From: a candidate division WWE3 bacterium UBA1379
Lineage (GTDB): Bacteria > Patescibacteriota > WWE3 > UBA101185 > UBA10185
Assembly (NCBI GenBank): GCA_002305475.1
Contig: DBRB01000005.1
Location: forward strand, 1 to 39,202
Length of the DNA stretch: 39,202 bases
Direction of reading: 5' to 3'
In this document: piece after piece, positions 18,580-38,267 of the stretch
How the letters are laid out: each line of letters starts with the position of its first letter
Numbering within the stretch: position 1 is the first letter of the stretch
Position numbers and translations under genes: made by a program
The notes under the pieces: generated by a model
Databases searched by the model: none
The model's input: the letters and a program-made list of their open reading frames with translations, nothing else
Told to the model about the DNA's origin: nothing

Positions 18580-18584
18580 AAAAA

Positions 18585-18614
18585 CCCGCCTTGCACTTAT
18601 TAGTACCCGGCGGG
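18585..18614. terminator. Bidirectional intrinsic terminator between convergent valS and the 18660..19217 gene
   Basis: Inverted repeat CCCGCC(18585-18590)...GGCGGG(18609-18614). The minus-strand RNA hairpin is followed by U7 (plus-strand A7 at 18578-18584). Confidence 0.5.
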
Positions 18615-18659
18615 ATTAAAAACTATTGTCCCCCTGATTAATATTTGATTGTTCAAATT

Positions 18660-19217: not shown

Positions 19218-19220
19218 TTC

Positions 19221-20102
19221 CTAATGTCCTTTCCCATTTAGCAGTTTACCAAGAAAAGGAATGTCACCAATCACCGTATGCAAAGCACCTTTTCCTGCCA
19301 TTTCCGCCAAGGTATCCATAACCTGCTTACCGATATAATCTTCCCCCTGAGTACTTTTCTCTTGCACATATGCAGTATTTTCAGCTTCACTTAATATTTG
19401 GATTGCCGCCGCCTTGGCTTTAGCTAATGCAATTTCTGCAGCAGCAGCTTGAATATGATTAGGTATATCTACATCTTTAAGCCAAACCCGACGAACTTTA
19501 CACCCCCAATTTGCGGCTTCCTTATGAAGGGCATCCGTCACACAACGGACTAGAAATTCTGTACCCTCCGCTTTAATACGATCAAAAGTGGTACCGCTCA
19601 GAACCCTCGTAAGTGCATCTCCAAACACGGTGGCGAAAGCCTGAATCGGATCCCTGGATGGGGTATTCCAATAAGTCTTTCCCGGATCTACCACCTGAAA
19701 TTCAAACCCAGGGTCATGAATTACTAAAGCTCCGGCAGTATCACCTCCGACCGCCAATGCCATAGTATCCATCTCTACGATTGTAGGGGCTAGAGAATAC
19801 TTTCTAGCCCGTTGAAACGGCCACTTTATATTTATGAGAAAACCCGTTCCGCACTCCTCTGTGCGACGGTTCAGTGTAACAATTACCACAGCCTCTTGTT
19901 CCCTCAACAGTATCCATGATAAACCAGGAATATTGAAAAGAAACAACAACACTAAAAGAACACCGGTAATAAGCACAGTTGCAGTAGGCCATTTTAGCAA
20001 CCAAATGGTCAATATCGAGGTTACTAAAACCACAATTACAACAAACACAACTAAGTGTTGACCAACACTTCGCTTATTATGGTTTGAAATATGCACAGAC
20101 AT
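19221..20102 (-). CDS. SPFH/band-7 domain protein (stomatin/prohibitin/HflKC superfamily)
   Basis: 293 aa. N-terminal TM anchor, then an SPFH-like core (VVIVTLNRRTEECGTGFLINIKWPFQRARKYSLAP...), then an Ala-rich coiled-coil (AAAAEIALAKAKAAAIQILSEAEN). Confidence 0.7.
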   Translation of the reverse strand: MSVHISNHNKRSVGQHLVVFVVIVVLVTSILTIWLLKWPTATVLITGVLLVLLFLFNIPGLSWILLREQEAVVIVTLNRRTEECGTGFLINIKWPFQRARKYSLAPTIVEMDTMALAVGGDTAGALVIHDPGFEFQVVDPGKTYWNTPSRDPIQAFATVFGDALTRVLSGTTFDRIKAEGTEFLVRCVTDALHKEAANWGCKVRRVWLKDVDIPNHIQAAAAEIALAKAKAAAIQILSEAENTAYVQEKSTQGEDYIGKQVMDTLAEMAGKGALHTVIGDIPFLGKLLNGKGH

Positions 20103-20113
20103 GTGCTCCTCCT

Positions 20114-20902
20114 TTAAGATTGAATAACATTCCTAATACCGCTTTTATGACTATGCACAGGCTGAAAAGATTTACTCTGATCAGAATCTGTACCTGAAGC
20201 TTTTTCTAAGAGATCAGCATATTTCGGATCAACACTTTTTACCAAAAACAAAAATTGCTCCTCGGTAAGTTGCCCGGATTTATACTGCTCTTGATAAAGC
20301 TTCAACAGTTCAACTATGATCTTCTTTTTTTCGACCTCAATTGCTTCCGTTTGCTGCTGTACGCTCTTCTCAGCAGTATCAAAAGTTTTTCCCAGGTCAA
20401 AATAGCCGGCTCTACCATCTCTGCTTCCCAAATCCACCTTAACCTGGGCTTCTTCCCGAAAAACCTGCTGTTCCGTGGATTCTGGACGCATGACGGTTCT
20501 TGATGCATTCCTTTTTGTTTGCAACCCGCTCAGAAATGAGAAAGCAGCAATCACTAATACCCACACTACAAAACTGGCAACAACTACCACCACATTCTCT
20601 GTCCATAACCAGTTAGCAACCAAGGAGAATCCCACAACAAGTACACACAATAACAACCTCTTATACCCTCTTGTAAATGCTGAATATACAGCCAAAGCAA
20701 ATGCATATAAAAGAAAAAAACGTGACCAAAAGGGTACCTGGGGAATAAATCTATCCAGTTGTTTGGACCCAAATAAAACCACTGCTCCTACAACAACCCA
20801 AAACAGAATATTTGCAACAAACCTCTGTTTTACGATCGTGTCAACTCTCATCTCAAACCTCCATGAAAAGAGTGTAGGACTGTTTGAACTTTTCAGCATC
20901 AA
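20114..20902 (-). CDS. Membrane protein with C-terminal SHOCT-like domain
   Basis: 262 aa with four hydrophobic helices, then IVELLKLYQEQYKSGQLTEEQFLFL, which resembles the SHOCT short C-terminal motif. Confidence 0.45.
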   Translation of the reverse strand: MMLKSSNSPTLFSWRFEMRVDTIVKQRFVANILFWVVVGAVVLFGSKQLDRFIPQVPFWSRFFLLYAFALAVYSAFTRGYKRLLLCVLVVGFSLVANWLWTENVVVVVASFVVWVLVIAAFSFLSGLQTKRNASRTVMRPESTEQQVFREEAQVKVDLGSRDGRAGYFDLGKTFDTAEKSVQQQTEAIEVEKKKIIVELLKLYQEQYKSGQLTEEQFLFLVKSVDPKYADLLEKASGTDSDQSKSFQPVHSHKSGIRNVIQS

Positions 20903-20940
20903 ACAGTCCTGATGTTAATTAAGTTTGTCCTTATTTTTTA

Positions 20941-21261
20941 TTAGGGAGTAGTCGGTGGAATAGGTGGAGCTGGTGGTTTAGGCGGAGAAGACGTAGCAGA
21001 CGTATTCCTCTGTGCCGACATAGTAACCGAACCTTTTGCGGATACCTTAAGTAAATTCCCCTCAAACGCCGACTCACCAGTTTCAGCGTAAGTAACGCTG
21101 GTATCCTGCTTGATATCCAAATCGTTACCAAACCCTAAAAGACCTCTCAGTCCGTCAAAAAACGGATTCCCTCTAAACATGTCGGACATTGCCTGAAACA
21201 ATCCCCCCAAACCTCCGTTTGAAGTGGGACTAACCTGCATGCCCTGTTGCTTTTTACTCAT
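20941..21261 (-). CDS. Hypothetical protein with Pro-rich C-terminus
   Basis: 106 aa; Gly-rich N-terminus and C-terminal PPKPPAPPIPPTTP. No family recognised. Confidence 0.35.
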   Translation of the reverse strand: MSKKQQGMQVSPTSNGGLGGLFQAMSDMFRGNPFFDGLRGLLGFGNDLDIKQDTSVTYAETGESAFEGNLLKVSAKGSVTMSAQRNTSATSSPPKPPAPPIPPTTP

Positions 21262-21290
21262 GATAAACCTCCTTATGCTCTTTCGTTGAT

Positions 21291-21884
21291 TTATTGATCG
21301 TTTTGGTAATATAAATGCAGTACCTTGTCTGCATACTGAAAACCTCGATCCATCGGACCGTATTTCTTTAATCCTTCTCGTTCACCATATTTCTTTATAA
21401 GATTCGCTAGAAACATCGTACCATAAGCAATATTTGTCTCCGGATCTTTAAGTGCCCTTACTGTCGGCCTGTCTTTAAACATATTTCCATATAGTTTTGC
21501 AGACAAACCGTCTGAAGCCATAATCTGCATCAAACCAACTGCACCGCTATGCGAAATTACAGTGGGTCTGCCACCGCTTTCTATAGTAATAACAGCGGCT
21601 ACTAGATCAGGATCCAAACCGTTAATCCTCGCGTGTTTAACAATCAGTTTTTCCCATTTCCTGACATTCCGAGGGTAATTTGGACTTATTCCACCAGTAA
21701 CTCCATCGGAAAAAGCACTGGCTTGAGCAACTTCACTAAAGAAATTAAAATCTATACCTGCATAATCCAAAAACAAGCCGCACGCTGACAACATAACAAT
21801 AGTTAATAACAGAGCCAAGCGAGGAACCTGTACCCATAGACGGGCGTAGGCACCAACCAGAAGAAAAGGAAGTTTTAATATCAT
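21291..21884 (-). CDS. Lytic transglycosylase (SLT domain, family 1)
   Basis: 197 aa. N-terminal TM/signal peptide; catalytic Glu in ITIESGG; AVGLMQIM motif; Y...AYN-like region. Confidence 0.85.
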   Translation of the reverse strand: MILKLPFLLVGAYARLWVQVPRLALLLTIVMLSACGLFLDYAGIDFNFFSEVAQASAFSDGVTGGISPNYPRNVRKWEKLIVKHARINGLDPDLVAAVITIESGGRPTVISHSGAVGLMQIMASDGLSAKLYGNMFKDRPTVRALKDPETNIAYGTMFLANLIKKYGEREGLKKYGPMDRGFQYADKVLHLYYQNDQ

Positions 21885-22105
21885 TCTTACCTCTCCTATA
21901 TATATTATTTACTTTTCAAAGAACAAAAATTCTACGACACTACTACATAAGTATCAGCAGTAATCCCCCCGAGATATTCAGTTTTCCCGGAAATGTTGAA
22001 CAATAAATTGGATAGGATTTTCTCTCATTCCTGCGAAAAATATACACTAGGGTATATCAAAAAGCAATACAAGCATTTTTAAGGTGGGAAGTGGACAACA
22101 GTATA

Positions 22106-22780
22106 TTATTCTTCGTTTTCTTCAGCTTCGCGTTCTTTCTTTTCTTCTTCAGTCAGCTCCTCAGAAGCTTCCACCTTAGCTAGTGCTTCTTCTTCACTGA
22201 CTTCTTCTGCTACTTCTTCCATCACAGCATGGTCAATCTTTACTATCATTTCATCTTCTTCATGCCCGACAATTTCGACTTTATTTCTATCATAATCAAG
22301 CTGGGAAACAGTGATTCCATCTCCGATTTCTTCGATTCCTGATACATCCACCACAAAACTTGATGGTAAATCTGAAGGAAGAGCTTCAACACTAACTTCA
22401 TCTAAAAGGGTTAATACCAGACCATCCCCGCTTTTTACCAGAGGGTTCGTTTCAGAACCTATAATTTCCACTGGAATTTGGGCGGTAATTTTCTCTTTAA
22501 GATTTACTTTATGAAATCCCGCATGAATAGGAGACAGAGTAATCGGATCAAGTTGTACATCTTTTATTAAAACTTTCTCTTTACCGGCACCTTCTATTGC
22601 AATATCCACAAGAGTATTTTCTCCTGCTATGCTGAATACTTTTATAAAGTTATTTAAATCTACAGTTAGAGAAATTGAATCCTGCCCTTTTCCGAACATA
22701 ACTGCAGGCATAAGCCTGTCATTTCTCAAGCTTTGGGCTTTTTTACCGTTTTCTTGTCTTTTTTGAGCAATAATTTCCAT
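22106..22780 (-). CDS. rplY: 50S ribosomal protein L25 / general stress protein Ctc form
   Basis: 224 aa. N-terminus MEIIAQKRQENGKKAQSLRNDRLMPAVMFGKG aligns with Ctc-type L25, and the C-terminus carries the acidic extension typical of the Ctc form. Confidence 0.85.
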   Translation of the reverse strand: MEIIAQKRQENGKKAQSLRNDRLMPAVMFGKGQDSISLTVDLNNFIKVFSIAGENTLVDIAIEGAGKEKVLIKDVQLDPITLSPIHAGFHKVNLKEKITAQIPVEIIGSETNPLVKSGDGLVLTLLDEVSVEALPSDLPSSFVVDVSGIEEIGDGITVSQLDYDRNKVEIVGHEEDEMIVKIDHAVMEEVAEEVSEEEALAKVEASEELTEEEKKEREAEENEE

Positions 22781-23109
22781 ATAGAATTCTTTTCCAGGGC
22801 ACGGTGCAAACTTAGTAATTCATCATAGCTTACGCTATTTTCCATCATAAATTTCTTTATTTCTTCCCCCAGAAGATCGGAAACAAGTGGGATGGTACCT
22901 GATCCTTGAGTGGTAACAGTAACCATACTTTGACCGTGACATTTAGGACAGACCGCATGAGCTAAAAATGCCATCGGAGCATCGCTGATGGTCAGCAGCT
23001 TCGCCTGTTCCAGACTCGACCCACATTTATAGCAAACTGACCTCTCTAAATGTTCTTTGATTAATCTACGTTCTAACATCCTACCTTTCCCGATCCCGCC
23101 GGAAATCAA
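22726..23109 (-). CDS. Hypothetical zinc-ribbon protein (two CxxC pairs)
   Basis: 127 aa with CYKCG...(24 aa)...CPKCHG and a Lys-rich tail. The 3' end overlaps rplY by 55 nt, so the true extent is uncertain. Confidence 0.4.
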   Translation of the reverse strand: MISGGIGKGRMLERRLIKEHLERSVCYKCGSSLEQAKLLTISDAPMAFLAHAVCPKCHGQSMVTVTTQGSGTIPLVSDLLGEEIKKFMMENSVSYDELLSLHRALEKNSIWKLLLKKDKKTVKKPKA

Positions 23110-23201
23110 AGCGATTTCTTTAAGGAACGAACGTCATTTTACTTCTGTAAACTTAATTGGTCAAGGACCTTGCTAATTGCTGCTAATACCTTTCCGATTG
23201 C

Positions 23202-24902
23202 CTATTCGGTCAAACTTACCACATATACACGGCTTCCGTCCAATACATACAGATTCTTCTCATCATCTGTTACAGCTATACCCCTGATATCAGTCCATTT
23301 AGAGGTATCAGAATTCATATATTGTTTATATAGCTTTCCTTCTTTGTCCAGAACAACAATCCTGTTATTTCCCTTATCCGCAACATAAATATAGTCAAAG
23401 TCGTAATCAGTCAGAACCTGTACCGATGCAACAAATTCTTTATCAAGACCGCTGACACTAAATTCATCCTGCACACCTTGTGTGAACTTCAGCAGACTTC
23501 CGTCATTCTTCAGAATATAGATACTTCCATCAATACTGATAGAACGTCCTCCGTTTAAAACGGCATTCTGAGTCCATGTTGATGATGTGCCGTCAGAAGT
23601 GGTTTTCGTAATGGTATCTCCGCTTAAAGTATAAGTATTTCCAAGATAAACGGATGAAATAGTTCTATCTTTAAATTCATCATCTGACAAAACAAATTTC
23701 GGCGTATCCAATGATGAGGAATAGATTTTCTTCTGATCCGTATCTCCTACTAAAACATTTGAGGAAGATAATTCAATATATGAGGGGTTTACCGATGCAT
23801 CCGTGAGTTTAAGATCATAAAATACTTCCGAAGACACTCTGACCACAGTGGGATCATCAGGAGCCTGAGTCACCGCAGACGCTACCTCGGAAGGTTGTTC
23901 TTTTTCCTCTGGCTCGGTAAATACATCCATCACACTTCCCTCTGCCGTTTCAGATGTTTCAGTGCGGATCTTGTCCCTATTTATTTTAAGAGAATATAAA
24001 ACGGATACTAATAATAAAATTCCTGCAATGGTAGCTATGGTTGTAACTTTCTCTTTCTTGCTTTTTTCTTTATGCACTCTGATGTCAATGACCGATTCCC
24101 TTGGATTATTCAGACTACCGGAATCGGATACCGGATTTCTCTCTATCGAAGGGGTGGCTTTCATTTTTCTTTTGAATATCCCAAAAACTTTTGAAACCGG
24201 AAGTTTTATTCCGGGTTTTTTGTCCTCAGATCCATTCATCCCAAAATCCACCACCTCATCTTGAGAAAAACTGGTATCAACAATGATTTTCAGAAGCACA
24301 CATGATCCTTCCATAGGTAGACCTTCCGTGGAAAATGAGGTATTTAAAAGTTCTTCCGGAGGAATTTTTTCAATAAAAGGTTGAGTGGCAAAAATCAGAA
24401 CATCATCATTCTTCACTACACCGGAAGCGGCTGAATAATGACCTTCGCTGTTGGCACTGATTGCTCTTAAATCCCCATCCCGCATCAGATAACATCCTGT
24501 TTTTCCGTATGAAACCATATAAATAACATTTCCCCATAACACACCGCACAATATATTAAACTGGACCTGTTCAGAGGTCGGATGAAGTGATATGGATTCA
24601 TTAGTCAGCTTAGTCACCCGATCCCTTACATCAGCAATAGCTTTTTCTAAAGATTGAACTGGAGATATGTTTTCGGACTGATAATAGGATTCACGCAATA
24701 CATCACTTACTACCGTAGAAACTAGGTTGGTATCGAATTCTTCTGATCCGGAGATATCAAATACAGCATAAAGACTGCCCTTTTTCCCGCGTGTAGTTTC
24801 ATCATCAGGTTCAACGGTAATGGCATTGGAAAATCCTCTGGCGGATACCGGCAGATTTGGATAGATTTTTTGAACTTTGGCAGTAAGTTTTTTCAACATC
24901 AC
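23202..24902 (-). CDS. Membrane protein: cytoplasmic PP2C-like (possibly degenerate) domain, one TM helix, extracellular NHL-repeat region
   Basis: 566 aa. PPM-like stretches KKGSLYAVFDISGS and CGVLWGNVIYMVSYGKTGCYLMRDGDL, with metal-binding Asp replaced. TM helix VTTIATIAGILLLVSVLYSL. C-terminal NHL-like repeats (YIYVADKGNNRIVVLDKEGKLY; LYVLDGSRVYVVSL). Confidence 0.55.
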   Translation of the reverse strand: MMLKKLTAKVQKIYPNLPVSARGFSNAITVEPDDETTRGKKGSLYAVFDISGSEEFDTNLVSTVVSDVLRESYYQSENISPVQSLEKAIADVRDRVTKLTNESISLHPTSEQVQFNILCGVLWGNVIYMVSYGKTGCYLMRDGDLRAISANSEGHYSAASGVVKNDDVLIFATQPFIEKIPPEELLNTSFSTEGLPMEGSCVLLKIIVDTSFSQDEVVDFGMNGSEDKKPGIKLPVSKVFGIFKRKMKATPSIERNPVSDSGSLNNPRESVIDIRVHKEKSKKEKVTTIATIAGILLLVSVLYSLKINRDKIRTETSETAEGSVMDVFTEPEEKEQPSEVASAVTQAPDDPTVVRVSSEVFYDLKLTDASVNPSYIELSSSNVLVGDTDQKKIYSSSLDTPKFVLSDDEFKDRTISSVYLGNTYTLSGDTITKTTSDGTSSTWTQNAVLNGGRSISIDGSIYILKNDGSLLKFTQGVQDEFSVSGLDKEFVASVQVLTDYDFDYIYVADKGNNRIVVLDKEGKLYKQYMNSDTSKWTDIRGIAVTDDEKNLYVLDGSRVYVVSLTE

Positions 24903-25011
24903 TTGAATTTTTTATTTAGCGGCAGACAGATAATTTTAAATATTGATTATTCCTTACCGCCAAACCTTAAAATTGCCTCTCCGTTTCAATAAATAATTAA
25001 TGCATAAACAG

Positions 25012-25260
25012 CTATATGGTCAGTATTGATATTACCACAAGAGCACCTGCTAAAAAAAGGTGTACAAACGATAATATTGTGAAAAACCAGGCGGCATCTG
25101 TTTTAAAACTGCTGTTGAGCAGATTAACCTGACGGACTACCAGGATGGAAAATATCCCGTAAATAACAATAATTCCCACAATCAGAATATTTATTAAACT
25201 GCTAAATCCTTCAGGAGAAAAAAGACTGACAATTAAATCCGCGGCTGTGTCACTGAACAT
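25012..25260 (-). CDS. Small membrane protein (two TM helices)
   Basis: 82 aa, hydrophobic. Its start overlaps the upstream gene's stop by 11 nt (operon partner). Confidence 0.4.
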   Translation of the reverse strand: MFSDTAADLIVSLFSPEGFSSLINILIVGIIVIYGIFSILVVRQVNLLNSSFKTDAAWFFTILSFVHLFLAGALVVISILTI

Positions 25261-25819
25261 TCTTTGCCTCCTTTACCAAATCGGATAATATATCCTGCAT
25301 CTTTGCCGGATTTGAAACACTTTGAAACTCAAACTGCGGAAGTTCGGCTGCAGTTTGAATAATTACATCTCCAATGTTAAAAAGGGCTTCAAAGGCTCCC
25401 TGAACATCGTAAGAAATATCTTCAATATTACGAAGAGGAGCATCCGATACTCTTCTATAAAGAAGGTGATAAAAGTCCATGTCTACAATCCTTTTATTCG
25501 TAATAATATAAACATTGAAAAACCAGTTCAAAAATCTTTCAAAGATAAAACCGAATGTGAAAAGATACCATAGAGCATTAATGTTAAATGCCAAATTGGA
25601 TCCAATTAATTCAGGATAATTCAGATTTAAGGAAAACAGCAAGGTATTAACAAAAGCCGGGGATATAATCAAAAGAACCGCAAATAATATCCAGCCTAAA
25701 TTTGTAACAAAACTCCGCCTAAGGACATACAGCACCTGCTCACCCGGATCCTCACCCTCGAATTTCGTCCCGGGTGGATCCTTAAGAAAAGAAGATGTTA
25801 GCGTTCTGATCATATACAA
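25250..25819 (-). CDS. Bacterial PH-domain membrane protein (bPH_2/DUF304, YdbS/YdbT-like)
   Basis: 189 aa. Two N-terminal TM helices, followed by ITNKRIVDMDF...IGDVIIQT, which is typical of bPH_2. Confidence 0.55.
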   Translation of the reverse strand: MYMIRTLTSSFLKDPPGTKFEGEDPGEQVLYVLRRSFVTNLGWILFAVLLIISPAFVNTLLFSLNLNYPELIGSNLAFNINALWYLFTFGFIFERFLNWFFNVYIITNKRIVDMDFYHLLYRRVSDAPLRNIEDISYDVQGAFEALFNIGDVIIQTAAELPQFEFQSVSNPAKMQDILSDLVKEAKNVQ

Positions 25820-26074
25820 ATTATATCATTATAGAGATGAATGTATTAGAAATCCGGTAAACAATCTGTAAAGAAGAACAAAAGGAGCAGCTTGATCTTA
25901 GAGTTTTGATGTAATCACATCAATTAGTTAATGCCGATATTTTTTTCATTGCCGAATCATAATACAATGGATGTTTAATCAGTACACATTTTTTCTTTTT
26001 GAAAGAACACGCGCAAATATCAAAAATATCTGATGAATGAATTATTACTTAATAGTGCAACAGATAAGAGAGAT

Positions 26075-27883
26075 TTATTTAGTTACAAAATCATATAGTT
26101 TATTTCTGATTGATATATACCCAGGTGCCCGTAAATTAAAGACGGTTTTAAATTCTGCTCCGTCAATTCCGATTCTTCCGCGATTAGTGTTAAAGTAAAC
26201 CTTTGATGTATACCCACCATTACTAATTTCTACATCTACATCCGAATCTACACTGGTAAATTTACTTCCGTAGTCATCTGCTTTATCCGCCATAGCGTCA
26301 ATTGAATAAGGGTTTCCTCCCCAACAACTGGTAGTAACAGGTGATATCCTGTCTTTTTCTTTTGAGGATCCCTTACGCCAGACAACCCAAGCATTAAGAA
26401 TATCCGCCATTTCTTTTTCTGTAAGCCATGGATTGGAACGTCCGCAAGTGGATGAATTTACATTATATGTCTGGGTATACCATGCTTTAAAAAACCAGGG
26501 CGATTTTGCTTTCTTTTCATACGCATCATTAGGCCAGCTTCCTTTAGTATCCCAGCCAATATTATTAATATATCCTCCGGTTGTAGAAGAGTAGTAGGCT
26601 ACAACACTGCTATCCAATATTTTCTTATCAGTATCATCAACTGCTTCTTTCCAACGGGATGGGGGATCCTCACTTTTGGATTTAAGAAACACCTGACAGG
26701 ACTGGGAAGTACAGATACATTTGCCGTTTTTCTTGTAGCGGTATGCATACGATCTGGCGGCTATAGCCTGAGCTTTCAAAGCATTTTCCGGCCAATCGGC
26801 TGGCATCTCCGCTAAACCATATAAATACTTCTTCATGCTCATCGTCCCATAACCCTCAACGCAAATCTCATCAGCATCATCTTCCTCTTTTACACCAGAT
26901 TTATAATAAAATTTAAGGATGTCCTTGTAATTCTGACCGGCTTCGGCACGTCCTTTTGCACCGTATTGACTCATACCATTACCGTGTGTATATGCTCCGT
27001 AACTGGAAGCGGCGAATGCTGGACGGAATCCAGGATCCGGTAGTTTTTGTTCCGCTGCTTCATAATTACCCACAGTACCGTTCCCCTCACCGTATTTCTG
27101 AGAAAGAATACTTTGCTGTTTTGCAGTCAGTTCACTGATAGCCTGTGATAAATCTTCTAGCTCTTCTTCAAGATCCTCCTGCTGACTGGAAAGAACATTT
27201 AATTCCTTCTCCTGGCTGGCTTTCTGTGAATCCAGCTGCTGTTTTAATACCAGCATCTTATTATGGGAATCTTCCAGTTCGCTTTTTAAACTTTCAGCTT
27301 CGTTTTTATCTTTTTCGAAATTTGTAATTTCCTTATTAATCGCTCCTATTAAACTGATCGTTTCAGAGGTTAAGGTTTTCTCAAAAATATATGAATAAGT
27401 AGAAAATTGGAAACCATTCAGATCTTCCTCGATTTTTTCACTTGTATTTACAAAAGGAACGGAAGATAAAAACAATTCCAGATCATTAAGTACTCCCCGC
27501 TTGCTGAAATTTCTGATAATTTTGTTTCTGATATCAATTTTTTCCGTCAGATCTTTCCGTCTGTTTTCCAGATTAGTATTTATTTCAGCCAGCTGTTCCT
27601 CCATGTTTTTAATATCCGCCTGAAGTTCATTAACCTGTGCCTGGGTAACATTCAACTGAGAGGACAAGTCAGCAATTTTTTTTGAGACACCGTCAGCTTT
27701 AGAACGAATTTCTGATAGTTTTTTTGATGTAGATTGATATTCTTCCTCTTTTTTCTCCAGTTTTTCTTCAATTTTCTTTAATTCGTCGTCGGTATCATCA
27801 GCCAGCATCACAAAACTCATAGCAGGTAGGAAAAATGTTATTGTTATTAGTACGAGTATGAGCAGTCTACGCATTGTGGACAT
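26075..27883 (-). CDS. SpoIID/LytB-domain protein with N-terminal signal anchor and long coiled-coil
   Basis: 602 aa. Coiled-coil over residues ~30-250. Then KKYLYGLAEMPADWPENALKAQAIAARSYAYRYKKNG...CTSQSCQVF, which matches the SpoIID/LytB amidase-enhancer domain signature. Confidence 0.7.
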   Translation of the reverse strand: MSTMRRLLILVLITITFFLPAMSFVMLADDTDDELKKIEEKLEKKEEEYQSTSKKLSEIRSKADGVSKKIADLSSQLNVTQAQVNELQADIKNMEEQLAEINTNLENRRKDLTEKIDIRNKIIRNFSKRGVLNDLELFLSSVPFVNTSEKIEEDLNGFQFSTYSYIFEKTLTSETISLIGAINKEITNFEKDKNEAESLKSELEDSHNKMLVLKQQLDSQKASQEKELNVLSSQQEDLEEELEDLSQAISELTAKQQSILSQKYGEGNGTVGNYEAAEQKLPDPGFRPAFAASSYGAYTHGNGMSQYGAKGRAEAGQNYKDILKFYYKSGVKEEDDADEICVEGYGTMSMKKYLYGLAEMPADWPENALKAQAIAARSYAYRYKKNGKCICTSQSCQVFLKSKSEDPPSRWKEAVDDTDKKILDSSVVAYYSSTTGGYINNIGWDTKGSWPNDAYEKKAKSPWFFKAWYTQTYNVNSSTCGRSNPWLTEKEMADILNAWVVWRKGSSKEKDRISPVTTSCWGGNPYSIDAMADKADDYGSKFTSVDSDVDVEISNGGYTSKVYFNTNRGRIGIDGAEFKTVFNLRAPGYISIRNKLYDFVTK

Positions 27884-27986
27884 AAATTAATTATAACATC
27901 TCATTGTTACAGGCAAATAAATTAAGAAAAGTTCCCACTTTCCGCAAATAAGTTGACTCTGCGGATAGTTAAGGACAATAATAGTG

Positions 27987-28516
27987 TAATGGTCCTTAAT
28001 AAAATAATTATTCCCTTAAAGTTTTGTAATTTTCTCTTTTGGGTATTAATTATTGTTTCACTTTATAACAAGCAAGCATATGCTGTTGAATATGCACCAT
28101 GTCAGCCTAATTCTTCCCACTGCACCTTAGTAGATGATCTAATCGGCTCACATTATGATTGTGCATGTGACGTATTTTGCGATCCCGGAGAAAAATGTGA
28201 AAAAAGAATGGGTATAGGTGCGAGTGGGTACTGGTGTCGGGAATCAAGCCTTTGTGTGGATCCAAATCCTGCTTATACAGACTGTACCTACGGGGAAATC
28301 GAAACATGCGGAAACAGTATATTGAACTCTTCCTGTGCAGATAATGAAAGATGTTTGTCACCTGCAAACACTGGCCCCGGCGGAAGCAGCAGACCTCAAT
28401 GTGTTCCTGATACTTCCTGTGTAAATGATCCAGGTGTCTGTGCAAATTTACCGGGGGCAGGTGCATATTGGCAACCTCTTGCACAGCAAACAATCCCCAA
28501 CAACTGGATTGTTTAA
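27987..28516 (+). CDS. N-terminal fragment of Cys-rich hairpin-anchored protein A (signal peptide plus Cys-rich region). The track ORF begins at TTG 27953; ATG 27987 gives a clean signal peptide.
   Basis: MVLNKIIIPLKFCNFLFWVLIIVSLYNKQAYA | VEYAPCQPNSSHC..., with 22 Cys in the mature part. It ends at TAA 28514-28516, while the downstream part of the same gene continues in another frame. Confidence 0.6.
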
Positions 28517-29460
28517 ACGGAACTGTATGCTGTACTTCTAATGAAAACGACTGCAATAGCATGGGTGGGATCTGTGACACCTCCTGTGGTGGCACGGGAG
28601 TTATACCCACCGGTATCTGCGGTCCAGGATCATTAGGCCAGTTATGTTGCAGACAAGAACCTGCTAAAGCCTGTGAAGTTTCGGTAGCTGCAGGAGGCCT
28701 TGGAGGTGAATGTGTAACAGCGGGTGCCTGTGGATCAGCACCCTTAACACCTGCTTCCGGATGTCTGTTTACCGAGGAATGCTGTCCTACTTCATCTACC
28801 CAAACATGCGAGGATGCGGGGGGTGTTGTTGTAAGACACGCAGGATGTGATACCCCTATAGAAGGTGTCGTTACACCTATTGGAGCATTATGCTGCAATC
28901 CCACTACCCTTCCAAAATGTAATGAAATACCTGGAGGTGGGTTTTGTACGTTTTTGCATTGTGATGTTACTCCGGTTGCTTCTTCGGATTGTGCGGCACC
29001 TAACATCTGTTGTCCAAACACACAGCGATTCTGTGAGGTTGGTAATGCGGGGGGACAACCATCATTCGGAGGTGTATGCAACGGGACACCTTGTACTACC
29101 GTTACACAAGCAAGAGAATGCTCCGTGTGTTGTCTTAATTCAGATGCGATACCTCCTCCTGACGGAAATGATGATGATCCCAGAGGTCCTACTTACACAT
29201 CCGAATACACAGGTCCAAAAATTACAGTTAATCAGCTAATAGGACTAATATACGATATAATGCTTCCAATAAGCATTGGGGTAGGATTGTTATTTATCAT
29301 AAAAGCAGGTTATGTTTTAAAAACTTCTGAAGGTAATCCTACTAAAAAACAGCAAGGTATTGATGATTTAACCGGCGCGGTGGTAGGTACATTATTTGTT
29401 GGTCTATCCTTAGTAATTTTGAGAGTAATCATTAATTCTATTTTGGGTGGCAATATTTAA
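28468..29460 (+). CDS. C-terminal fragment of Cys-rich protein A: Cys-repeat ectodomain plus the conserved C-terminal two-helix hydrophobic hairpin
   Basis: This frame is open from 28429, with no signal peptide of its own. Its Cys-rich repeats match the architecture of the intact paralog B. The last ~90 aa are near-identical to the C-terminus of B and homologous to the three small downstream proteins. Confidence 0.6.
   Translation: MATSCTANNPQQLDCLNGTVCCTSNENDCNSMGGICDTSCGGTGVIPTGICGPGSLGQLCCRQEPAKACEVSVAAGGLGGECVTAGACGSAPLTPASGCLFTEECCPTSSTQTCEDAGGVVVRHAGCDTPIEGVVTPIGALCCNPTTLPKCNEIPGGGFCTFLHCDVTPVASSDCAAPNICCPNTQRFCEVGNAGGQPSFGGVCNGTPCTTVTQARECSVCCLNSDAIPPPDGNDDDPRGPTYTSEYTGPKITVNQLIGLIYDIMLPISIGVGLLFIIKAGYVLKTSEGNPTKKQQGIDDLTGAVVGTLFVGLSLVILRVIINSILGGNI
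29245..29402 (+). repeat. 158-bp block perfectly identical to 30750..30907 (3' hairpin-module coding region shared by genes A and B). The surrounding ~260 bp are ~85-90% identical.
   Basis: Direct comparison of the two gene 3' ends. The block from CTAATATACGATATAATGC through ACATTATTTGTTGG is identical base for base. Confidence 0.85.
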
Positions 29461-29608
29461 TTATCTCTCATTTTTTAACTCAATCATAGTGGATCCGAAT
29501 AGTTACAGCGAACCATCTTCTTAAATAGATATCAACGCATCATATATACTTGACTATCAATTTGTTTACCCGTCATAATCCTATTACAAAAGTTTCTAGC
29601 AACATTAT

Positions 29609-30968
29609 TATGAAAAATATTAATAAAATTTTATTATTCTTCCTGTTTCTTTTTGTCGGCTTTCTTTTTTATACCGGTAAAGTATACGCAGACTGGTGTA
29701 CGGAACCTAGATATGCTGCTTTAGGAGCTCGATGTGTGTCTATGGCAGGATCTACGGAATTTAGATGTCCGGACGGTTTTAGCACTTATCCAGATCCTAA
29801 TGTAGTTTGCCCGGTTGATGGGGTTGAAATCTGCTGTGTACCAAACACCAGGATGTGTTTAAACAATAGTAGCAACAGCTGCCATAATACATCCTGCCCT
29901 GCAGGCTATGTTCCATCACAACCAGGTAATTTATTATGTCCGATTAACGGTCAGGTTTGTTGTACACCACAGCAAGCTCCAAACCCAGAGCAATGTCCTA
30001 CAGGTAATGGAGTATGTCTACCTAATTGTAATGTAACAGGATACACAAATGATCCGCAAAGAAGATCCTGCACAATTAACAATACAGAGTGTTGTATTAG
30101 AACAAATACCGGAAGTTGTCCGGCACCCCCAAATGGATTTTGTTTTAGCGGTACTTGCAGTGGAGGAACCGTACCGGATCCTCAAAACAGATTATGTTCT
30201 ACACCAGGAAATGTATGTTGTCTTCCAGCGAGTACTTCAACACAATGTCCGGCTTCTCCTGAAGGTTATTGTTTTTCAGGTGCATGTGCCGGGGGGACAG
30301 TACCGGATCCACAGGGAAGACAATGCTCAACCAGTGGACAAACCTGCTGTGTACCAGATCCAAGCGATGCCTGTCCTGCACCTCCAGACGGGTTTTGTTA
30401 CGATGGATTATGTCCGGGCGGTTTGATGCTGGATAGTAGATCATGTCCTAATGCAAGTCAGAATTGCTGTGTGGAGGAAGAAATTGTTATTCCTCCTACA
30501 GAATGTACCCCTAACGCAACAGTATGTGATATACAAATTGTAAATGGGGTAGTAGTTAGTGCGTGGTGCCCCTGCGGTGAATCTGGCTGCGGTACAAATA
30601 CCAGATGTGTAAAAGGAGTCGGAGATACATTCTTTTGCCAAAACGATACGATTGCTTGTATAGCTGAAGACGACCCGTTAGACCCAGATGATTCAACGTA
30701 CGAATCAGAATACACAGGACCGATAATCACAGTAAATGAGCTGATTTCTCTAATATACGATATAATGCTTCCAATAAGCATTGGGGTAGGATTGTTATTT
30801 ATCATAAAAGCAGGTTATGTTTTAAAAACTTCTGAAGGTAATCCTACTAAAAAACAGCAAGGTATTGATGATTTAACCGGCGCGGTGGTAGGTACATTAT
30901 TTGTTGGATTGTCATTAGTGATTTTAAGAATTATAATTAATTCAATCTTAGGTGGTAACATAACTTAA
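29609..30968 (+). CDS. Cys-rich secreted protein B: signal peptide, ~38-aa six-Cys tandem repeats, C-terminal VirB2/TrbC-like two-helix hairpin. ATG 29609 is the likely start; the track TTG 29550 lies inside the promoter.
   Basis: Signal peptide MKNINKILLFFLFLFVGFLFYTGKVYA | DW. About 60 Cys in repeats of the form CPAPPxGFCFSGxCxGGTVPDPQxRxCSTxGxxCC(V/L)P. C-terminus ...IYDIMLPISIGVGLLFIIKAGYVLKTSEGNPTKKQQGIDDLTGAVVGTLFVGLSLVILRIIINSILGGNIT. Promoter TTGACT(29550-29555)-N17-TCATAAT. Confidence 0.75.
30117..30476 (+). repeat. Three tandem ~126-129-bp coding repeats, each a ~38-aa six-Cys unit, within gene B
   Basis: The units start at 30117, 30246 and 30372. Each encodes CP(A)(P/S)PxG(F/Y)C(F/Y)xGxCxGG...(R)xC...CC(L/V)(P/E). 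Confidence 0.75.
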
Positions 30969-31013
30969 AGTCTAAACCTGACTTTGAATATTATTTAAAA
31001 GGAGGTGTAATCT

Positions 31014-31376
31014 ATGAACTTACAATTAATACAGGATGTTTATGCAGGACCTGGTGTAGGTACAACAGTATCCAGCTCATTAACAACTGACTTCACTGAT
31101 ATCGGTGACCTGGCTGGTTTTGTAATCAATATTATTCTTGGTATAGGTTGGGCTTTAACCTTTATCATGCTTGCCGGTGGTTTTATCAGATACATCACAT
31201 CAAGAGGTGAAACCAAGGCTACGGATTCTGCACGAAACTGGCTGACATATGCCGCTTTAGGAGGGGTTGGTTTGTTCTTCTTAACTGTTATTAAAAATAT
31301 AATACTGTCACTATTAACTGGTAATACAAGCAGACCTCAGGAAATTGACGAACAATTTGACCCGTTTGCCAACTAA
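31014..31376 (+). CDS. Small two-helix hairpin protein P1 (VirB2/TrbC-pilin-like topology), candidate major subunit
   Basis: 120 aa. Hydrophobic helix (FVINIILGIGWALTFIMLAGGFIRYI), loop TSRGETKATDSARNW, second helix. Homologous to the C-termini of A and B. Strong SD AAAGGAGGTG 13 nt upstream, and a hairpin terminator downstream. Confidence 0.7.
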   Translation: MNLQLIQDVYAGPGVGTTVSSSLTTDFTDIGDLAGFVINIILGIGWALTFIMLAGGFIRYITSRGETKATDSARNWLTYAALGGVGLFFLTVIKNIILSLLTGNTSRPQEIDEQFDPFAN

Positions 31377-31398
31377 CTTCGCTGAAATTGTACAGTGT

Positions 31399-31430
31399 AA
31401 AACCCCGGTTAATTCCGGGGTTTAGCATTT
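31399..31430 (+). terminator. Intrinsic terminator/attenuator after P1
   Basis: Perfect 8-bp stem AACCCCGG(31401-31408)/CCGGGGTT(31415-31422), loop TTAATT, followed by TAGCATTTGTAT. Confidence 0.6.
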
Positions 31431-31488
31431 GTATGACCTTGCTTCACAAATAATTGCTTTATACAAACGTCTTGCCATATAATACCTA

Positions 31489-31795
31489 TATGTTTGACTA
31501 CATCCCTTTCTCACAAGATCCAAGCGGAGGAAATGTAACGACTATCGGAGATGTGTTAGGTATGTCAATAAATATCATGATGGGAATTGTTTTTGCTTTG
31601 GGTTTTATATCGCTAGCAGCGGGGTTTGTTATATTTGTTACCAGCAGAGGAAATCCTGATGGTACTGCACGTGCAGGAAAAGCCGTATTATACGGTGCAG
31701 GTGCAGTGGCACTATCTCTGCTCGTCCTTGTAATTAAAGAAATTATCTTCAAGGCAATAGGTGTTGAAGGTGTAGACACCGTGCCGGCTATTTAG
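31489..31795 (+). CDS. Small two-helix hairpin protein P2, paralog of P1. The track ORF begins at TTG 31454; ATG 31489 is likelier.
   Basis: MFDYIPFSQDPSGGNVTTIGDVLGMSINIMMGIVFALGFISLAAGFVIFVTSRGNPDGTARAGKAVLYGAGAVALSLLVLVIKEIIF..., collinear with P1 and with the A/B C-termini. A TATAAT-like box lies ~6 nt upstream of the ATG, suggesting a possible leaderless transcript. Confidence 0.65.
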
Positions 31796-31804
31796 AATAA
31801 ATAT

Positions 31805-32233
31805 ATGTTAAAGGTATTAAGATCAGTATTAATATTTACTCTATTAATAACAGCTTTCAATGTGTTTTCAGAACCTGCATATGCCGTAAACTGCACCCCT
31901 CTTTCGGATGAAGCACCCGGACCACAGGATATAATCTGCCCTGTTATAAGAATTGTGAATATCGCTTTGCTTTCTTCCGGAGCGGTATTAATTCTGATGC
32001 TTTTATGGGGCGGTGTTAAATTAGCGCTGGCAATCGGAGATCCAAAAGCCATGCAGGCTGCATCAGCAACATGGACTTGGGCTATCATAGGATTTGCTGT
32101 AGTAATCGGCGGTGCTACTTTATTGAAAATAGTAGCGGGCTGGTTCGGATGGGAAGCAGACTTTCTTAATCCCTTTGATACACTTCAACAAAAAATACAG
32201 GAATTTATGTCGCTTTTGCATATTGAAGGTTAA
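31805..32233 (+). CDS. VirB2/TrbC-like pilin-type protein P3 (signal peptide plus two hydrophobic helices)
   Basis: 142 aa. Signal peptide MLKVLRSVLIFTLLITAFNVFSEPAYA | VNC. Mature part with two Cys, helix 1 AVLILMLLWGGVKLALAIGDPK, loop, helix 2 WAIIGFAVVIGGATLLKIVAGWFGW. This layout resembles Agrobacterium VirB2. Confidence 0.65.
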   Translation: MLKVLRSVLIFTLLITAFNVFSEPAYAVNCTPLSDEAPGPQDIICPVIRIVNIALLSSGAVLILMLLWGGVKLALAIGDPKAMQAASATWTWAIIGFAVVIGGATLLKIVAGWFGWEADFLNPFDTLQQKIQEFMSLLHIEG

Positions 32234-33525
32234 TATTCTATTAAATACGCGCCACCTAAAGTAAATGTATTGATTAAACTATTCCCTGAGTAGTAAACAT
32301 CTGAAACTTTTCCTTGTAACTCAACATTAAAACTATAACTTCTTGAAATTCCTGTTTCTAGATCTATCACTATTATATCTAAGGTACGTGTTTGTGGATT
32401 TATACCACTAAACGATACAACTTTATCTTGTATAAATGCGGGAACTAGCTCTGTTAATGGAATATTTTTGTTGAAAATATTTACAGATGTTCTTGTATTA
32501 TTAGTGAGATTATATATTACCCAGTTATTACCATTAAAATATAGTATGTCCTCTCTTGATGGATTTGTTTTTATATATGATAGCGGAGATGTATCGATGT
32601 TCTTTTTATCCCAACTGAATGTAGTTTTTTCCAAAGATGATATTATATAGTATTCATTACCTAGATTACCCACATCACTAGGCTGTTCAATAACCACGAT
32701 TTTATTCTGATTTCCTAGTACCGCTTTATATAATCCTGCTAATATTTCCGTGGATAATTCGGTTGTTACTCCTGTGTCGGTATCATATATTGAAAGCGTT
32801 GATGTTGCATTCAGAAAATTTATATTTGTTTGGTATAGCAGTTGTTTTAATTGAGGATTATAATCCTGAACCCAACCTTTTATTGAAAGTTCCCGCAATA
32901 CAGGTGTACTTTTCGACTGCCATGGTGAGAGATCCAAAGAAAATATCCTTAGATTATCCAACTGTTCTCCTGTTGTAACATAAGCCTTCTGTGCATCTAT
33001 CCATAGCAGATCACGCACTCTTGGCAATTGCTCTCTTAACAACGCAAAATAATCTTCACCTGTATTAATCTCCACTATCCTGGTCTGGTTATTATAGTAA
33101 ACTAAATAAGGTTTAAGCGTATCCGGGTATAAGAACGATGTATAATTAATCCCGATTGTATCTTTATATAATTCATTAGTAGTAGGTGCTCTTTTTAATG
33201 AATAGGAAACCTGTCCCGTTTTAATTATATCCGAGGTAATTACCTGACCTTCAATCCAAAAACCATTTAATTTGAGCTGGATAAAATCTCCATCGACAAG
33301 CCCTAATGATGCAGGGGTTGTTTGTCCCGAGTATTTATCATTAATAAATATCTGTGCTCCCGTCGGCTCGGATATTATCATCAACGTACCCTGACTCTTT
33401 TCACTAGTACCAGTAGACACATTTCGATCAAATGCGGGGTTTGTACTGACGTTCCTGAAAAAATAACCGATCAAAAAAACCACGAAAAGGATTAATATTA
33501 ATATTATTATTTGTTTCTTTTTCAT
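32230..33525 (-). CDS. Membrane-anchored extracytoplasmic protein with PEGA domain and a beta-rich (propeller-like) region
   Basis: 431 aa. N-terminal TM anchor MKKKQIIILILILFVVFLIGYFF. PEGA-like TLMIISEPTGAQIFINDKYSGQTTPASLGLVDGDF. Then ~330 aa rich in beta-strand-type repeats. Its stop shares the TTAA with the stop of P3 (convergent). Confidence 0.55.
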   Translation of the reverse strand: MKKKQIIILILILFVVFLIGYFFRNVSTNPAFDRNVSTGTSEKSQGTLMIISEPTGAQIFINDKYSGQTTPASLGLVDGDFIQLKLNGFWIEGQVITSDIIKTGQVSYSLKRAPTTNELYKDTIGINYTSFLYPDTLKPYLVYYNNQTRIVEINTGEDYFALLREQLPRVRDLLWIDAQKAYVTTGEQLDNLRIFSLDLSPWQSKSTPVLRELSIKGWVQDYNPQLKQLLYQTNINFLNATSTLSIYDTDTGVTTELSTEILAGLYKAVLGNQNKIVVIEQPSDVGNLGNEYYIISSLEKTTFSWDKKNIDTSPLSYIKTNPSREDILYFNGNNWVIYNLTNNTRTSVNIFNKNIPLTELVPAFIQDKVVSFSGINPQTRTLDIIVIDLETGISRSYSFNVELQGKVSDVYYSGNSLINTFTLGGAYLIEY

Positions 33526-33537
33526 ATCTTTATTAAA

Positions 33538-36500
33538 CTATGGACGACATGCCTCATTCCAAATTTCTCCCATTGCACGCCAATCAGTAAAACATGCAAG
33601 TGCACCAGAAGACCATCTTGATATTAAATCAACAACGCTTACACCTGCAACATCATGACTGTTTTGAAAGTTTCCGGTCTGGCTTCCTGCAAAGTGAGTA
33701 TGAGGGTGTGTACCTAAAGTATGACAACTTCCAGAACAATCAGAATGACCAAGTGTTGTTCCCGCTGCAACAGGTATACACCCCTCTGGCGATGGTCTGC
33801 CCGTAATTGTTGTATCCATCATATGAGTAAAGTATAAAGAAGGGCAAGGAGATGTAATTTCATCATTCCAGTCTCCAGAAGGATCCGTGGGATATAAATA
33901 AACAGAAACACCGCCTGTAGGATCCATTTCAGGAAAGGCACACCCGTCAAACGGAGCTACCACAGGCTGACCCTCGCATTGGTATACATCTGAGATACCT
34001 TCCGTACTACTATGGGTGCAACTATAACCTAATAATCCAGGGAACGGATTTCTACCCGGACAATTTGTACCATCACCAAATCTACCTCGTGGAGGAGCAG
34101 ATCCGGAACCGGGAGGTACAACAACCGGTAGTTCATCTCCTACACATTCACCGGAAACACATTGAAGAGAACAACATATAGAAGAATCTGAACAGGATTC
34201 CCCGGTATGTCGGCAGTCTGCTCTTGGCATACCAGCCATTTGATATCCAGTACTACTTCTTGTTGTGTCTATAGGTGGGAAGGTGATAAGAGATGAACCG
34301 AAAAACATAAAGGAGATAATCATGATAATAAAAAAAGGAAAAGCTGTTATATATAAAATCATCTTAACACCAGTGGTCACGAGTTTATCCAAGTCTTTAA
34401 AGAATGTGGAGAGCTCCCCTTTAAATATAGCCTTGAGAAATGCTTCTGTTTTATTGATAACCAGATTTGTTACAAACTTTACAACCGGAGTAATTACTTT
34501 ATCTATTATCGGGGCAAGTACAGAACCAGCACCTGAAGTACTTCCAGCAAGTAATGCCAGAAGAGCTGTTCTAATAGCTCTCGCCACTGCAGTAGATATT
34601 GCATCTTTAACCTGAAACAAAGGAGCGACATATTTACCTATTCTCTTAAAAACTTCTGTCTGAATCTGATTTGCCAAGGATGATAATTTCTGCAGATGAC
34701 CAACCCGATCCCAAGTAATATTTATATAATCAGTGCTTCTTATCCTTTTTCCTAAACCCTGCATCAATTCCGTTAATATTCTTCCATTTTCAGCTGTGTT
34801 TTCAAGATAGTTCCCATTAAAAGACAAACCCAACCTTTGCTGATTTTCTTTAAGCCATCTCAAGAATTTTTCGTTATTTTCGACCAAATCCGTGAATTCC
34901 TTTTCGCCAACCTTCAACCCTTTAACAACCGATATATCTCCGTTGAGAAAGCGGATCATTGAATTACCGCTATCATTAAAACCGACGAGAGCGCCGGTAT
35001 TCTTATCCAACACTGCATTCAAACGGCCTAAAGTTTTGTTTGCAGCATCGTGATCCGATAAAATTCCATGTAGAGTAACCGCACCCTTAAAATGTTTACC
35101 GCCAGCTACCTTCACTCTACCCACCCCCGAGATATCTACAGAAAAGGTGTTTCTCGCTGTAAATGCTTTTGTGCTTGAACCGGCAAAATCCGGATCATAC
35201 ACTAAACCTAAGTAATGTGATCTTTGTAATGTGGCTTTAACTGCCTGAGAAGGATACAAACCGTCAAGATAGGGTCTGATTTTTCCTTGCCATACATAAA
35301 CTTTAAACAGCCTTCCCTTTTCAATATTTGATAAAAAGTCCGCAAAGTCATTCTTCTCATACATAGGGTTGGCTGCCATCAGAAGCCTTCGAACATTTTC
35401 TATGCCGGAATACTGATCAACCTGGGAATTAGTATGTGAGGCTGTTTTTGTAAAGACATCGCGTAGGGTATCCCCACTATTTGGGGTAAACATACTACCA
35501 CCCTGCATCAAATATCTACCGGTAGTCTTATTCAGCAAATCGTGTTGAATGCCCTTTATGGCACCGGGTTGCGTTATACTACTTGCCAAAGTATCAAGAC
35601 GACCTTTTAGTACACCGGCCGATAGTATGCCTACCGAGCCTGAAGACTGTGCCTCTACAGCCAGATTATGAATATCTTCAACTTTCCTTCTAAATGAACT
35701 CATTACCAGGTTGTAATTCTGTTTCTGAATAGGATTAAGGTTTGCAGGTATTACTGTATCAATATCATTAAGCGCATCGCTGGCAACTTTTTGCAAGGTC
35801 TTCATTGAATTCTGAATGGTCAACCCCGCTTTTTCCCCGCCGACTACAATTTTTCCTAGGTTTTCCTGAACACCAAAAATACCTTCTTTTTTAGTAAAAT
35901 TACTTATTCTTTGTACGGCTTTTGTACCGGCAAGAAAATCCTCTATAGCAGCAATTTCATCAACTGATAAACCGGTTACATTATTTCGGAAATTTTCTAC
36001 TTCAGTAGCAACGGCATCCAAAGCACTTAAACGAAGTTCGTTATAATCCCTGTTTCTGGACGAAGTGGCCTCAACACCAACGGTAAATTTCAGGAAAGAT
36101 TGACCAACTTTGGAATAGACATCTGTGGGTATTTTCTCCTTAACAATATCGTAAGTACCGGGGGAAGTTTCCCTTACCATGTTAACTTCAGTGTCTCCCG
36201 GTTTCATCACCCTCAAACCCTGCATCTGATAAGGATTTGGTTCCGTGGTAGGTGTAATACCTAATGTATGTTTGGCATACTCTTCTGCAGGCCTGAAAAA
36301 AGGAGACTGACCTTCCGGTGCTAAATTATCCCGCCCCGCTAAAACAGGCTCCCAGAAATACTTCTGTTCAATGTAGTTTCTGAAGTCTTTCCAGTCAAAA
36401 GTGGATTTAACCCATTGTTCTATAGTTGATTTAAATTGTCCTTCGGGATCTTTTGACCAATCCCCCGGATTGATAGATACCTGAAGCTGAACGCCGGGAG

Positions 36501-36774: not shown

Positions 36775-36855
36775 ATGAAAATAGTATATACTAGATTTTA
36801 CGATTTTTTAATTAAATTCTTGCATTATTAACCCGTTTGTGGAAAAATTCTAAAT

Positions 36856-38193: not shown

Positions 38194-38267
38194 CCGGTAA
38201 ACAAACCACATTAATCACACCTCGATAATTTCCTCAAAATATCAGTTTTATACGCTATAATGTTCCC

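Follow-up and report, generated by a model that had tools for sequence, protein, structure and literature searches.

Two overlapping ORFs located around position 28,500 of the WWE3 contig studied here (39,202 nt; the whole stretch of DNA analysed is referred to as the window) raise the question of whether they constitute two genes or a single gene, paralog A, that is split by a frameshift. If the latter is the case, one also has to decide whether the frameshift is a mutation, a reversible switch, a site of programmed recoding or an error in the recorded sequence. A first-pass annotation had proposed that one gene is split in the overlap and had named pseudogene formation, phase variation and sequencing or assembly error as possible causes.

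Reading Frames and Domain Architecture of Paralog A

The upstream ORF is read in frame 2. Its start codon is TTG 27953 or, more plausibly, ATG 27989, and its TAA stop codon occupies positions 28514-28516, as the first-pass annotation had it. Frame 1 is open from 28429, directly after a TGA at 28426-28428, to a stop codon at 29458-29460. It carries the rest of the gene, including the hairpin, which also agrees with the earlier proposal, as does the length of the overlap in which both frames are open, 88 nt. The frameshift must fall inside this overlap (Table 1). There are 175 open codons in frame 2 and 344 in frame 1, and a second lesion is absent.

Frame 2 can be joined to frame 1 only by a +1 insertion, a 2-nt deletion or a -1 ribosomal slip. 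In an insertion scan, duplication of a base at nearly any position between 28428 and 28513 resulted in an unbroken 490-aa product starting from ATG 27989. The claim that a single-base change would fuse the two ORFs into a protein of ~490 aa is therefore true of insertions; a one-base deletion does not have this effect.

Table 1. Features of the paralog A locus and the adjoining pilin genes. Coordinates are those of the window.
Feature	Position	Strand	Basis
Promoter-like TTGACT-18-AATAAT just 5' of the paralog A ATG	27953-27982	+	Consensus scan only, not evidence of function
Frame-2 ORF (signal peptide and Cys-rich modules)	27989-28516	+	Sequence
Sec-type signal peptide of paralog A (MVLNKIIIPLKFCNFLFWVLIIVSLYNKQAYA), frame 2	27989-28084	+	Sequence
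Two Cys-rich CxC-type ectodomain modules (28100-28255 and 28283-28420), frame 2	28100-28420	+	Sequence
Overlap with frames 2 and 1 both open, 88 nt	28429-28516	+	Sequence, insertion scan
Frame-1 ORF (Cys repeats and VirB2-like T4SS_pilin hairpin)	28429-29460	+	Sequence
Zone where a +1 correction keeps a canonical six-Cys repeat	28436-28462	+	Insertion scan
Cys repeats r1 to r6, six in all, with the pattern C..C..C..C..CC; in frame 1 once past the G run	28439-29133	+	Sequence
Cys repeat r1, spans the lesion	28439-28533	+	Sequence
G5 run; putative one-base deletion from ancestral G6 (CCG GGG GGC, Pro-Gly-Gly)	28453-28457	+	No longer homopolymer within 28436-28462
Cys-free end of the truncated N-terminal product, read out of frame (AGAYWQPLAQQTIPNNWIV, stop)	28458-28516	+	Sequence
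C4 run, not a likely lesion site	28495-28498	+	Insertion scan
C-terminal VirB2-like two-helix membrane hairpin (Pfam PF18895, T4SS_pilin), frame 1	29236-29457	+	Pfam scan
158-nt tract identical between paralogs A and B	29245-29402 = 30750-30907	+	Sequence comparison
Promoter-like TTGACT-18-CATAAT upstream of paralog B	29550-29579	+	Consensus scan only
Paralog B, intact, 452 aa (signal peptide, Cys repeats, a CxC module and the hairpin also present in A)	29610-30968	+	Sequence, Pfam scan
Three short VirB2-like pilin genes (120, 113 and 142 aa)	31014-32233	+	Pfam scan, synteny with L002, L003, L006 and L007

In the corrected protein, the order of elements given in Table 1 is completed by an acidic, Pro-rich linker between r1-r6 and the hairpin. 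The N-termini of the proteins of relatives are analogous to the paralog A signal peptide and end in xYA or xFA. A CxC-type module is also found at the N-terminus of the protein from relative L008, and in paralog B and the protein from L007 it adjoins the membrane anchor. A signal peptide and two hydrophobic helices with a short polar loop are all present in paralog A, though in one polypeptide only after frameshift correction. The mature corrected protein contains an even number of Cys residues, 48, and the mature N-terminal fragment alone an odd number, 15.

The hairpin was recognized by the Pfam profile PF18895 (gathering cut-off of 26.6 bits) with a score of 28.5 bits when the last 93 aa of paralog A were scanned alone, and of 24.2 bits in the full-length protein (24.8 bits for full-length paralog B). 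The same profile matched all eight aligned relatives scanned. No matches were obtained when PDB sequences were searched with a profile of the aligned hairpins. NCBIfam provided no names for paralogs A and B or for the 1078-aa and 445-aa proteins encoded downstream of the pilin genes, and no Pfam matches to VirB4 or VirB6 were found among the large ORFs of the 39-kb window.

The First Pilin Gene in Relatives

The SpoIID-like gene beside the pilin genes assigns the organism to WWE3, and the closest relatives found through it are 55-72% identical; the best one (72%) lies on a 2.4-kb contig, and the others reach at most 65%. Since these relatives are too distant for comparison at the level of individual bases, they were used for architecture and synteny. 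In all six syntenic relatives, the first pilin gene beside the SpoIID-like gene is one intact ORF that encodes a signal peptide, an ectodomain and a hairpin. Owing to a hypervariable Cys-rich ectodomain, the products vary in length (118 aa in L009, 125 aa in L002, 317 aa in L007, 360 aa in L006, 408 aa in L008 and 568 aa in L003), and their hairpins are 33-52% identical to that of paralog A. The order of genes beyond the first pilin could be judged in L002, L003, L006 and L007, whose contigs reach that far. In these four, the first pilin is followed by three short pilins and a protein of ~1000-1250 aa, as in the window. The first-pass annotation had held that orthologues that are also split, together with reads that uniformly support the current sequence, would speak against its proposal; none of the syntenic relatives is split at this position.

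Metagenome contigs were scanned with the conserved hairpin motif, which retrieved 80 loci, with 66 genes not cut by a contig end. About 63 of these 66 complete genes (~95%) are single ORFs that start with a signal peptide. These genes code for proteins of 87-620 aa with 0-56 Cys residues. At one locus, L065, an in-frame TAA at ~1466-1468 separates the signal-peptide/Cys part from the rest (…LSIPPY*TFNSS…), which may be a nonsense mutation or an error.

These data bear on the possibility that paralog A is a genuine two-gene arrangement, with a secreted 175-aa Cys-rich protein and a separately started 330-aa protein translated from TTG 28468. NCBI does list the two halves as individual proteins (P0002 with 175 aa and P0001 with 330 aa), and an AGGTG sequence is located 4 nt upstream of TTG 28468. 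However, the 330-aa product would have no signal peptide despite an ectodomain of ~250 aa that is rich in disulfides, while the 175-aa product would end in a 19-aa Cys-free out-of-frame tail and contain an odd number of Cys residues. A family of stand-alone N-terminal homologues was not found either: when the N-terminal 156 aa of paralog A served as the query in an exhaustive HMMER search against 1.84 billion cluster representatives, only P0002 and one 2701-aa repeat protein were retrieved. Since the relatives have single ORFs, the N-terminal family is absent and the fragments look unnatural alone, the two-gene arrangement is not supported, and we consider it very improbable.

The 2701-aa protein (P0126) contains nine stretches that resemble residues 98-145 of paralog A (Cys module 2) at 29% identity, with the match at ~855-902. 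A word-indexed search of 5.8 billion proteins with fused paralog A returned only the C-terminal fragment itself, a weak negative result, since P0002, which is present in the collection, was missed. No matches to A-specific peptides were found in a scan of JGI metagenomes, and an exact look-up showed that the 490-aa protein corrected with a G6 run (see below) is not on record.

A different kind of overlap is present at 22106-23109 on the minus strand, where a 127-aa ORF and the beginning of the ribosomal protein L25 gene share 55 nt in different frames. This pair is also called in L007 and L008 (117 aa and L25), which makes it a conserved two-gene arrangement and not a frameshift, in contrast to paralog A. 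In the latter, both halves are real coding sequence and the relatives carry single ORFs, so the proposal of one gene split by a frameshift in the overlap stands. The two deposited hypothetical proteins would be better flagged as one disrupted gene.

Probable Location of the Missing Base

The first-pass annotation had pointed to two homopolymer tracts in the overlap. The CCCC run is located exactly where it had been placed; the GGGGG run is there as well, though at 28453-28457 and not at 28452-28456, one base away. If the frame is corrected at the C4 run, repeat r1 becomes CANLPGAGAYWQPLAQQTIPQQLDCLNGTVCC and is two short of its six Cys residues; the C4 run was rejected as the lesion site for this reason. 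The G5 run, in turn, is the only G/C run of at least 5 within the zone where a +1 correction keeps the six-Cys repeat canonical. There are just 24 G/C runs of at least 5 in the 39-kb window, and only 5% of 88-nt intervals and 1% of 20-nt intervals hold one. Since such runs are rare, the coincidence of the shift zone with the G run is more than would be expected by chance.

When G6 is restored at 28453, r1 reads CANLPGGRC, which resembles CNEIPGGGFC of r5. Three G6 runs are present in the whole window, at 28818-28823 and 29049-29054 in paralog A and at 30291-30296 in paralog B, and each of them encodes Gly-Gly. Thus, 3 of the 15 Gly-Gly dipeptides of A and B are encoded by G6, compared to none of the 33 in other genes; the numbers are small, and our own hypergeometric estimate gives p of about 0.03.

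The Cys pattern of r1 is satisfied by any insertion at 28436-28462 except 28441. Since frame 1 alone reads a complete Cys repeat from 28441, this pattern cannot fix the site to the base. The missing base of paralog A most likely belongs to the G run, slippage from G6 to G5 being the most parsimonious history. The ancestral G6 state at 28453 is judged from paralogous repeats, because no close orthologue of paralog A was found in the collections searched.

Mutation or Error

In the Logan assembly of sequencing run SRR5321211, for which a literature search found no paper, a contig of 29.3 kb matches the window without a single difference at positions 17989-29273, G5 included. A second Logan contig, SRR5321211_38, covers positions 30878-39202 with one difference at 35801 (T in the NCBI contig, C in Logan), which translates into K325R of the 1078-aa protein and hints that the strains in the sample are slightly heterogeneous. 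The break of the Logan contig at 29273 and its resumption at 30878 are accounted for by the 158-nt tract that is identical between paralogs A and B. The NCBI contig and the Logan assembly were made separately, both from SRR5321211, the one run in which the organism is recorded. Since the two assemblies agree at G5 while differing at the polymorphic position 35801, an assembler artefact, one of the causes considered at the outset, is unlikely.

In the case of a sequencing or consensus error, the run would in reality be G6 and the 490-aa gene unbroken. A single base does restore a fully plausible protein, and homopolymer indels are a common artefact in metagenome-assembled genomes; moreover, two assemblies made from the same run are not independent with regard to read errors or low coverage. 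On the other hand, the NCBI and Logan sequences do not differ anywhere in the 11.3 kb surrounding the site, and other long genes in the 39 kb are unbroken despite longer runs (G6, C6, A8 and T8). The genes for FtsH, a class I aminoacyl-tRNA synthetase, SufB, cysteine desulfurase and LeuRS, the SpoIID-like gene and the 1078-aa gene are all full length, although the window has 24 G/C runs of 5 or more together with numerous A/T runs of greater length. An error at this site is, in our view, unlikely.

Programmed Frameshifting

Full-length pilin could also be envisaged to arise from the G5 template if the G run caused transcriptional slippage or a programmed -1 shift of the ribosome. The shift required is indeed -1, and the P-site tRNA-Gly on GGG (28454-28456) could re-pair perfectly one base back, yielding LPGGRC. 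However, the zero-frame codons at the G run (TTA CCG GGG GCA) contain no X XXY YYZ heptamer, as A CCG GGG and G GGG GCA both deviate from this pattern. The RNA downstream showed no excess of structure over shuffled controls (z = -1.72, -1.22 and 0.06), and the relatives encode the protein in a single frame. A run of five G residues is far too short for known cases of transcriptional slippage. We rejected programmed frameshifting on the grounds of the missing slippery heptamer and the non-significant downstream structure and assign it only a minimal chance. Were it true, peptides across ...ANLPGGRCILATS... in a uniformly G5 population, or a peptide spanning ANLPGGRCILATSC from a population with G5 only, would point to recoding.

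Phase Variation

The G tract lies within the ORF of paralog A, and a change of +/-1 base toggles full-length translation. One can imagine a low-grade reversible switch, in which slipped-strand mispairing between G5 and G6 turns paralog A ON and OFF, the assembly showing the OFF majority state. Several observations are consistent with such a switch. The permitted zone of this gene, which codes for a surface structure, has a single G/C run of 5 or more, in which the lesion lies, Gly-Gly encoded by G6 is over-represented in A and B (3 of 15 versus 0 of 33), and paralog A carries only one lesion. In addition, an unrelated member of the family, found in three metagenomes (L071, L072 and L073) in versions that are 99.5-99.9% identical, differs by one indel. 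In L071 (153-158) and L072 (~2054) the run is G6 and the gene is intact, reading M-G-G-C, while in L073 (121-127) it is G7 and the gene is frameshifted. Finally, the pilin arrays of Patescibacteria are thought to diversify host interaction (PMC12102498).

The tract itself, G5 and presumably G6 when intact, is below the length of at least 7 that serves as the cut-off for calling phase-variable genes with G/C repeats (PMC6321876). For a non-redundant set of 42 family genes, the density of G/C runs is 0.27 per kb versus 0.18 per kb in the flanks at a length of at least 6, and 0.04 versus 0.03 per kb at a length of at least 7; the family genes are also more GC-rich than the flanks. Family-wide poly-G enrichment as a signature of contingency loci was thus not clearly found in these 42 genes, and the local G6 Gly-Gly enrichment is confined to A and B. 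Both assemblies have G5, a G6 allele of paralog A is not on record, and the enrichment and the second case of an indel rest on very small numbers. The classical form of phase variation, which the first-pass annotation had considered, is not supported, and the low-grade switch we regard as unlikely. Evidently, short Gly-Gly-encoding G runs are a weak spot of the family genes, through mutation or error.

A more general idea, that short G6 runs coding for Gly-Gly loops of the Cys-rich ectodomains in long VirB2-like pilins act as low-grade contingency switches in CPR bacteria and thereby turn adhesive pilin paralogs ON and OFF among the cells of a population, appears quite unlikely, even though the change from G6 to G5 in paralog A and the G6/G7 difference among L071, L072 and L073 would agree with it. 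If it were true, it would be the first indication of phase variation of the simple sequence repeat (SSR) type in the host-attachment apparatus of ultra-small episymbionts, and true G5/G6 heterogeneity would point to a simple means by which CPR bacteria choose between pilins in an on/off manner, for which no example is known to us.

Paralog B, the Pilin Array and Probable Gene Conversion

Paralogs A and B and the three short pilins form a five-gene array of VirB2-like pilins. The 120-aa and 142-aa short pilins match PF18895 with 23.7 and 30.3 bits, respectively. The first-pass annotation had described fused paralog A as collinear with paralog B, and at the level of architecture this is so. The two proteins, however, can be aligned only over the last ~99 aa, with 89% identity; their ectodomains contain similar Cys modules in a different order.

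Within the aligned part, the 158-nt tract is identical in A and B. The sequences flanking it on the two sides have pS of 0.67 and 0.96 and pN of 0.15 and 0.03. As judged by these comparisons, the identity of the 158-nt tract is most simply explained by recent gene conversion. Since synonymous sites outside the tract are near saturation and pN is low, A and B are old, with anchors under purifying selection, and by the same values the frame-1 reading has been under selection. Because the frameshift is the sole defect in about 490 codons and the hairpin has a history of strong purifying selection, the frameshift is probably young relative to the age of the gene; alternatively, it is not in the genome at all.

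The 1078-aa gene (33538-36774, minus strand) and the 445-aa gene (36856-38193, plus strand) are kept beside the array in L002, L003, L006 and L007. Their products, the former with a Cys- and His-rich C-terminus, gave no Pfam or NCBIfam match and are candidate parts of the pilus or secretion apparatus.

At a distance from the array, the window contains a tyrosine recombinase (Phage_integrase) gene at 6243-7166, followed by its lowest-GC stretch (31% at 7001-8000) and by a tRNA-Ile gene with the anticodon TAT at 8300-8375. The region 6243-8375 may be a small integrated element. A tRNA-Ile with a UAU anticodon is uncommon in bacteria.

Proposed Origin of the Split Gene

We put the probability at roughly 60% that a recent, genuine one-base deletion turned paralog A, one of the two long Cys-rich VirB2-like pilin genes, into a null allele, paralog B being intact. 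Paralog A would originally have been a single gene, the first of the five-gene pilin array in this genome of WWE3 (Katanobacteria, CPR/Patescibacteria). Its predicted product is a secreted, disulfide-rich pilin with a signal peptide, a Cys-rich ectodomain of about 380 aa and a C-terminal two-helix hairpin. In the sequenced population, a G6 run that would have encoded Gly-Gly of the first loop of repeat r1 was probably shortened to G5 (28453-28457), likely by replication slippage. Translation from the signal peptide would then stop 19 codons after the lesion, and the secreted product would be a fragment of 175 aa that lacks the membrane anchor and has an odd Cys count. A working pilin is unlikely to arise from the other 330 codons, since they include no signal peptide. 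The function of paralog A would thereby be lost, and paralog B and the three short pilins presumably carry the function of the array.

The frameshift itself matters little, as it adds one more inactivated paralog in a metagenome-assembled genome. Of somewhat wider interest is the conserved WWE3 array, whose first gene encodes a VirB2-like hairpin joined to a hypervariable, disulfide-rich ectodomain that ranges from 0 to about 500 aa. Here there are two such genes, with anchors that appear to be homogenised by gene conversion, and one of them was probably knocked out recently. Duplication, diversification and loss form the pattern expected of a host-contact surface under diversifying selection.

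Comparison with Known Systems

The proposed null allele resembles ordinary frameshift pseudogenes in duplicated surface-protein genes, in which a single indel occurs at a short homopolymer, one paralog is intact and the rest of the gene is undecayed. Homologues of paralog A carry all its parts in a single ORF, a state to which one indel would return the gene here, as is characteristic of a pseudogene or null allele. There is no essential difference from such pseudogenes, except that the host lineage and the gene family are unusual.

SSR phase variation through poly-G/C tracts in Campylobacter and Neisseria (PMC6321876, PMC5953494) likewise involves a change of +/-1 in an intragenic poly-G that switches the frame of a surface gene, and the variation between G6 and G7 among samples in a second member of this pilin family is a further likeness. 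The difference is that the tract here, of only 5 (6 when intact), is shorter than the cut-offs of at least 7 (PMC6321876), and an excess of long tracts across the pilin family is absent. With dnaX-type -1 frameshifting, the locus shares the need for a -1 shift and a G run that lets tRNA-Gly re-pair; unlike in dnaX, there is no canonical heptamer, significant stimulatory structure or conservation.

The closest framework for the locus as a whole is given by the VirB2-like pilin arrays of Patescibacteria. According to PMC12102498, such arrays consist of 2-11 genes in 383 assemblies, and pilin genes are located near virB4 in only 1135 of 1948 assemblies. The window likewise contains a tandem array, of five genes, whose products combine a signal peptide with the PF18895 two-helix hairpin and whose paralogs are highly divergent. 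The conserved placement of the array in WWE3 beside a SpoIID-like gene and a ~1000-1250-aa protein is another likeness. As to differences, no VirB4 was found in this 39-kb window and one paralog is frameshifted. In addition, the hairpin of the first gene or genes is here preceded by a hypervariable, Cys-rich ectodomain that is long, reaching up to about 500 aa; a mention of long Cys-rich VirB2-like pilins was not found in the passages of PMC12102498 consulted.
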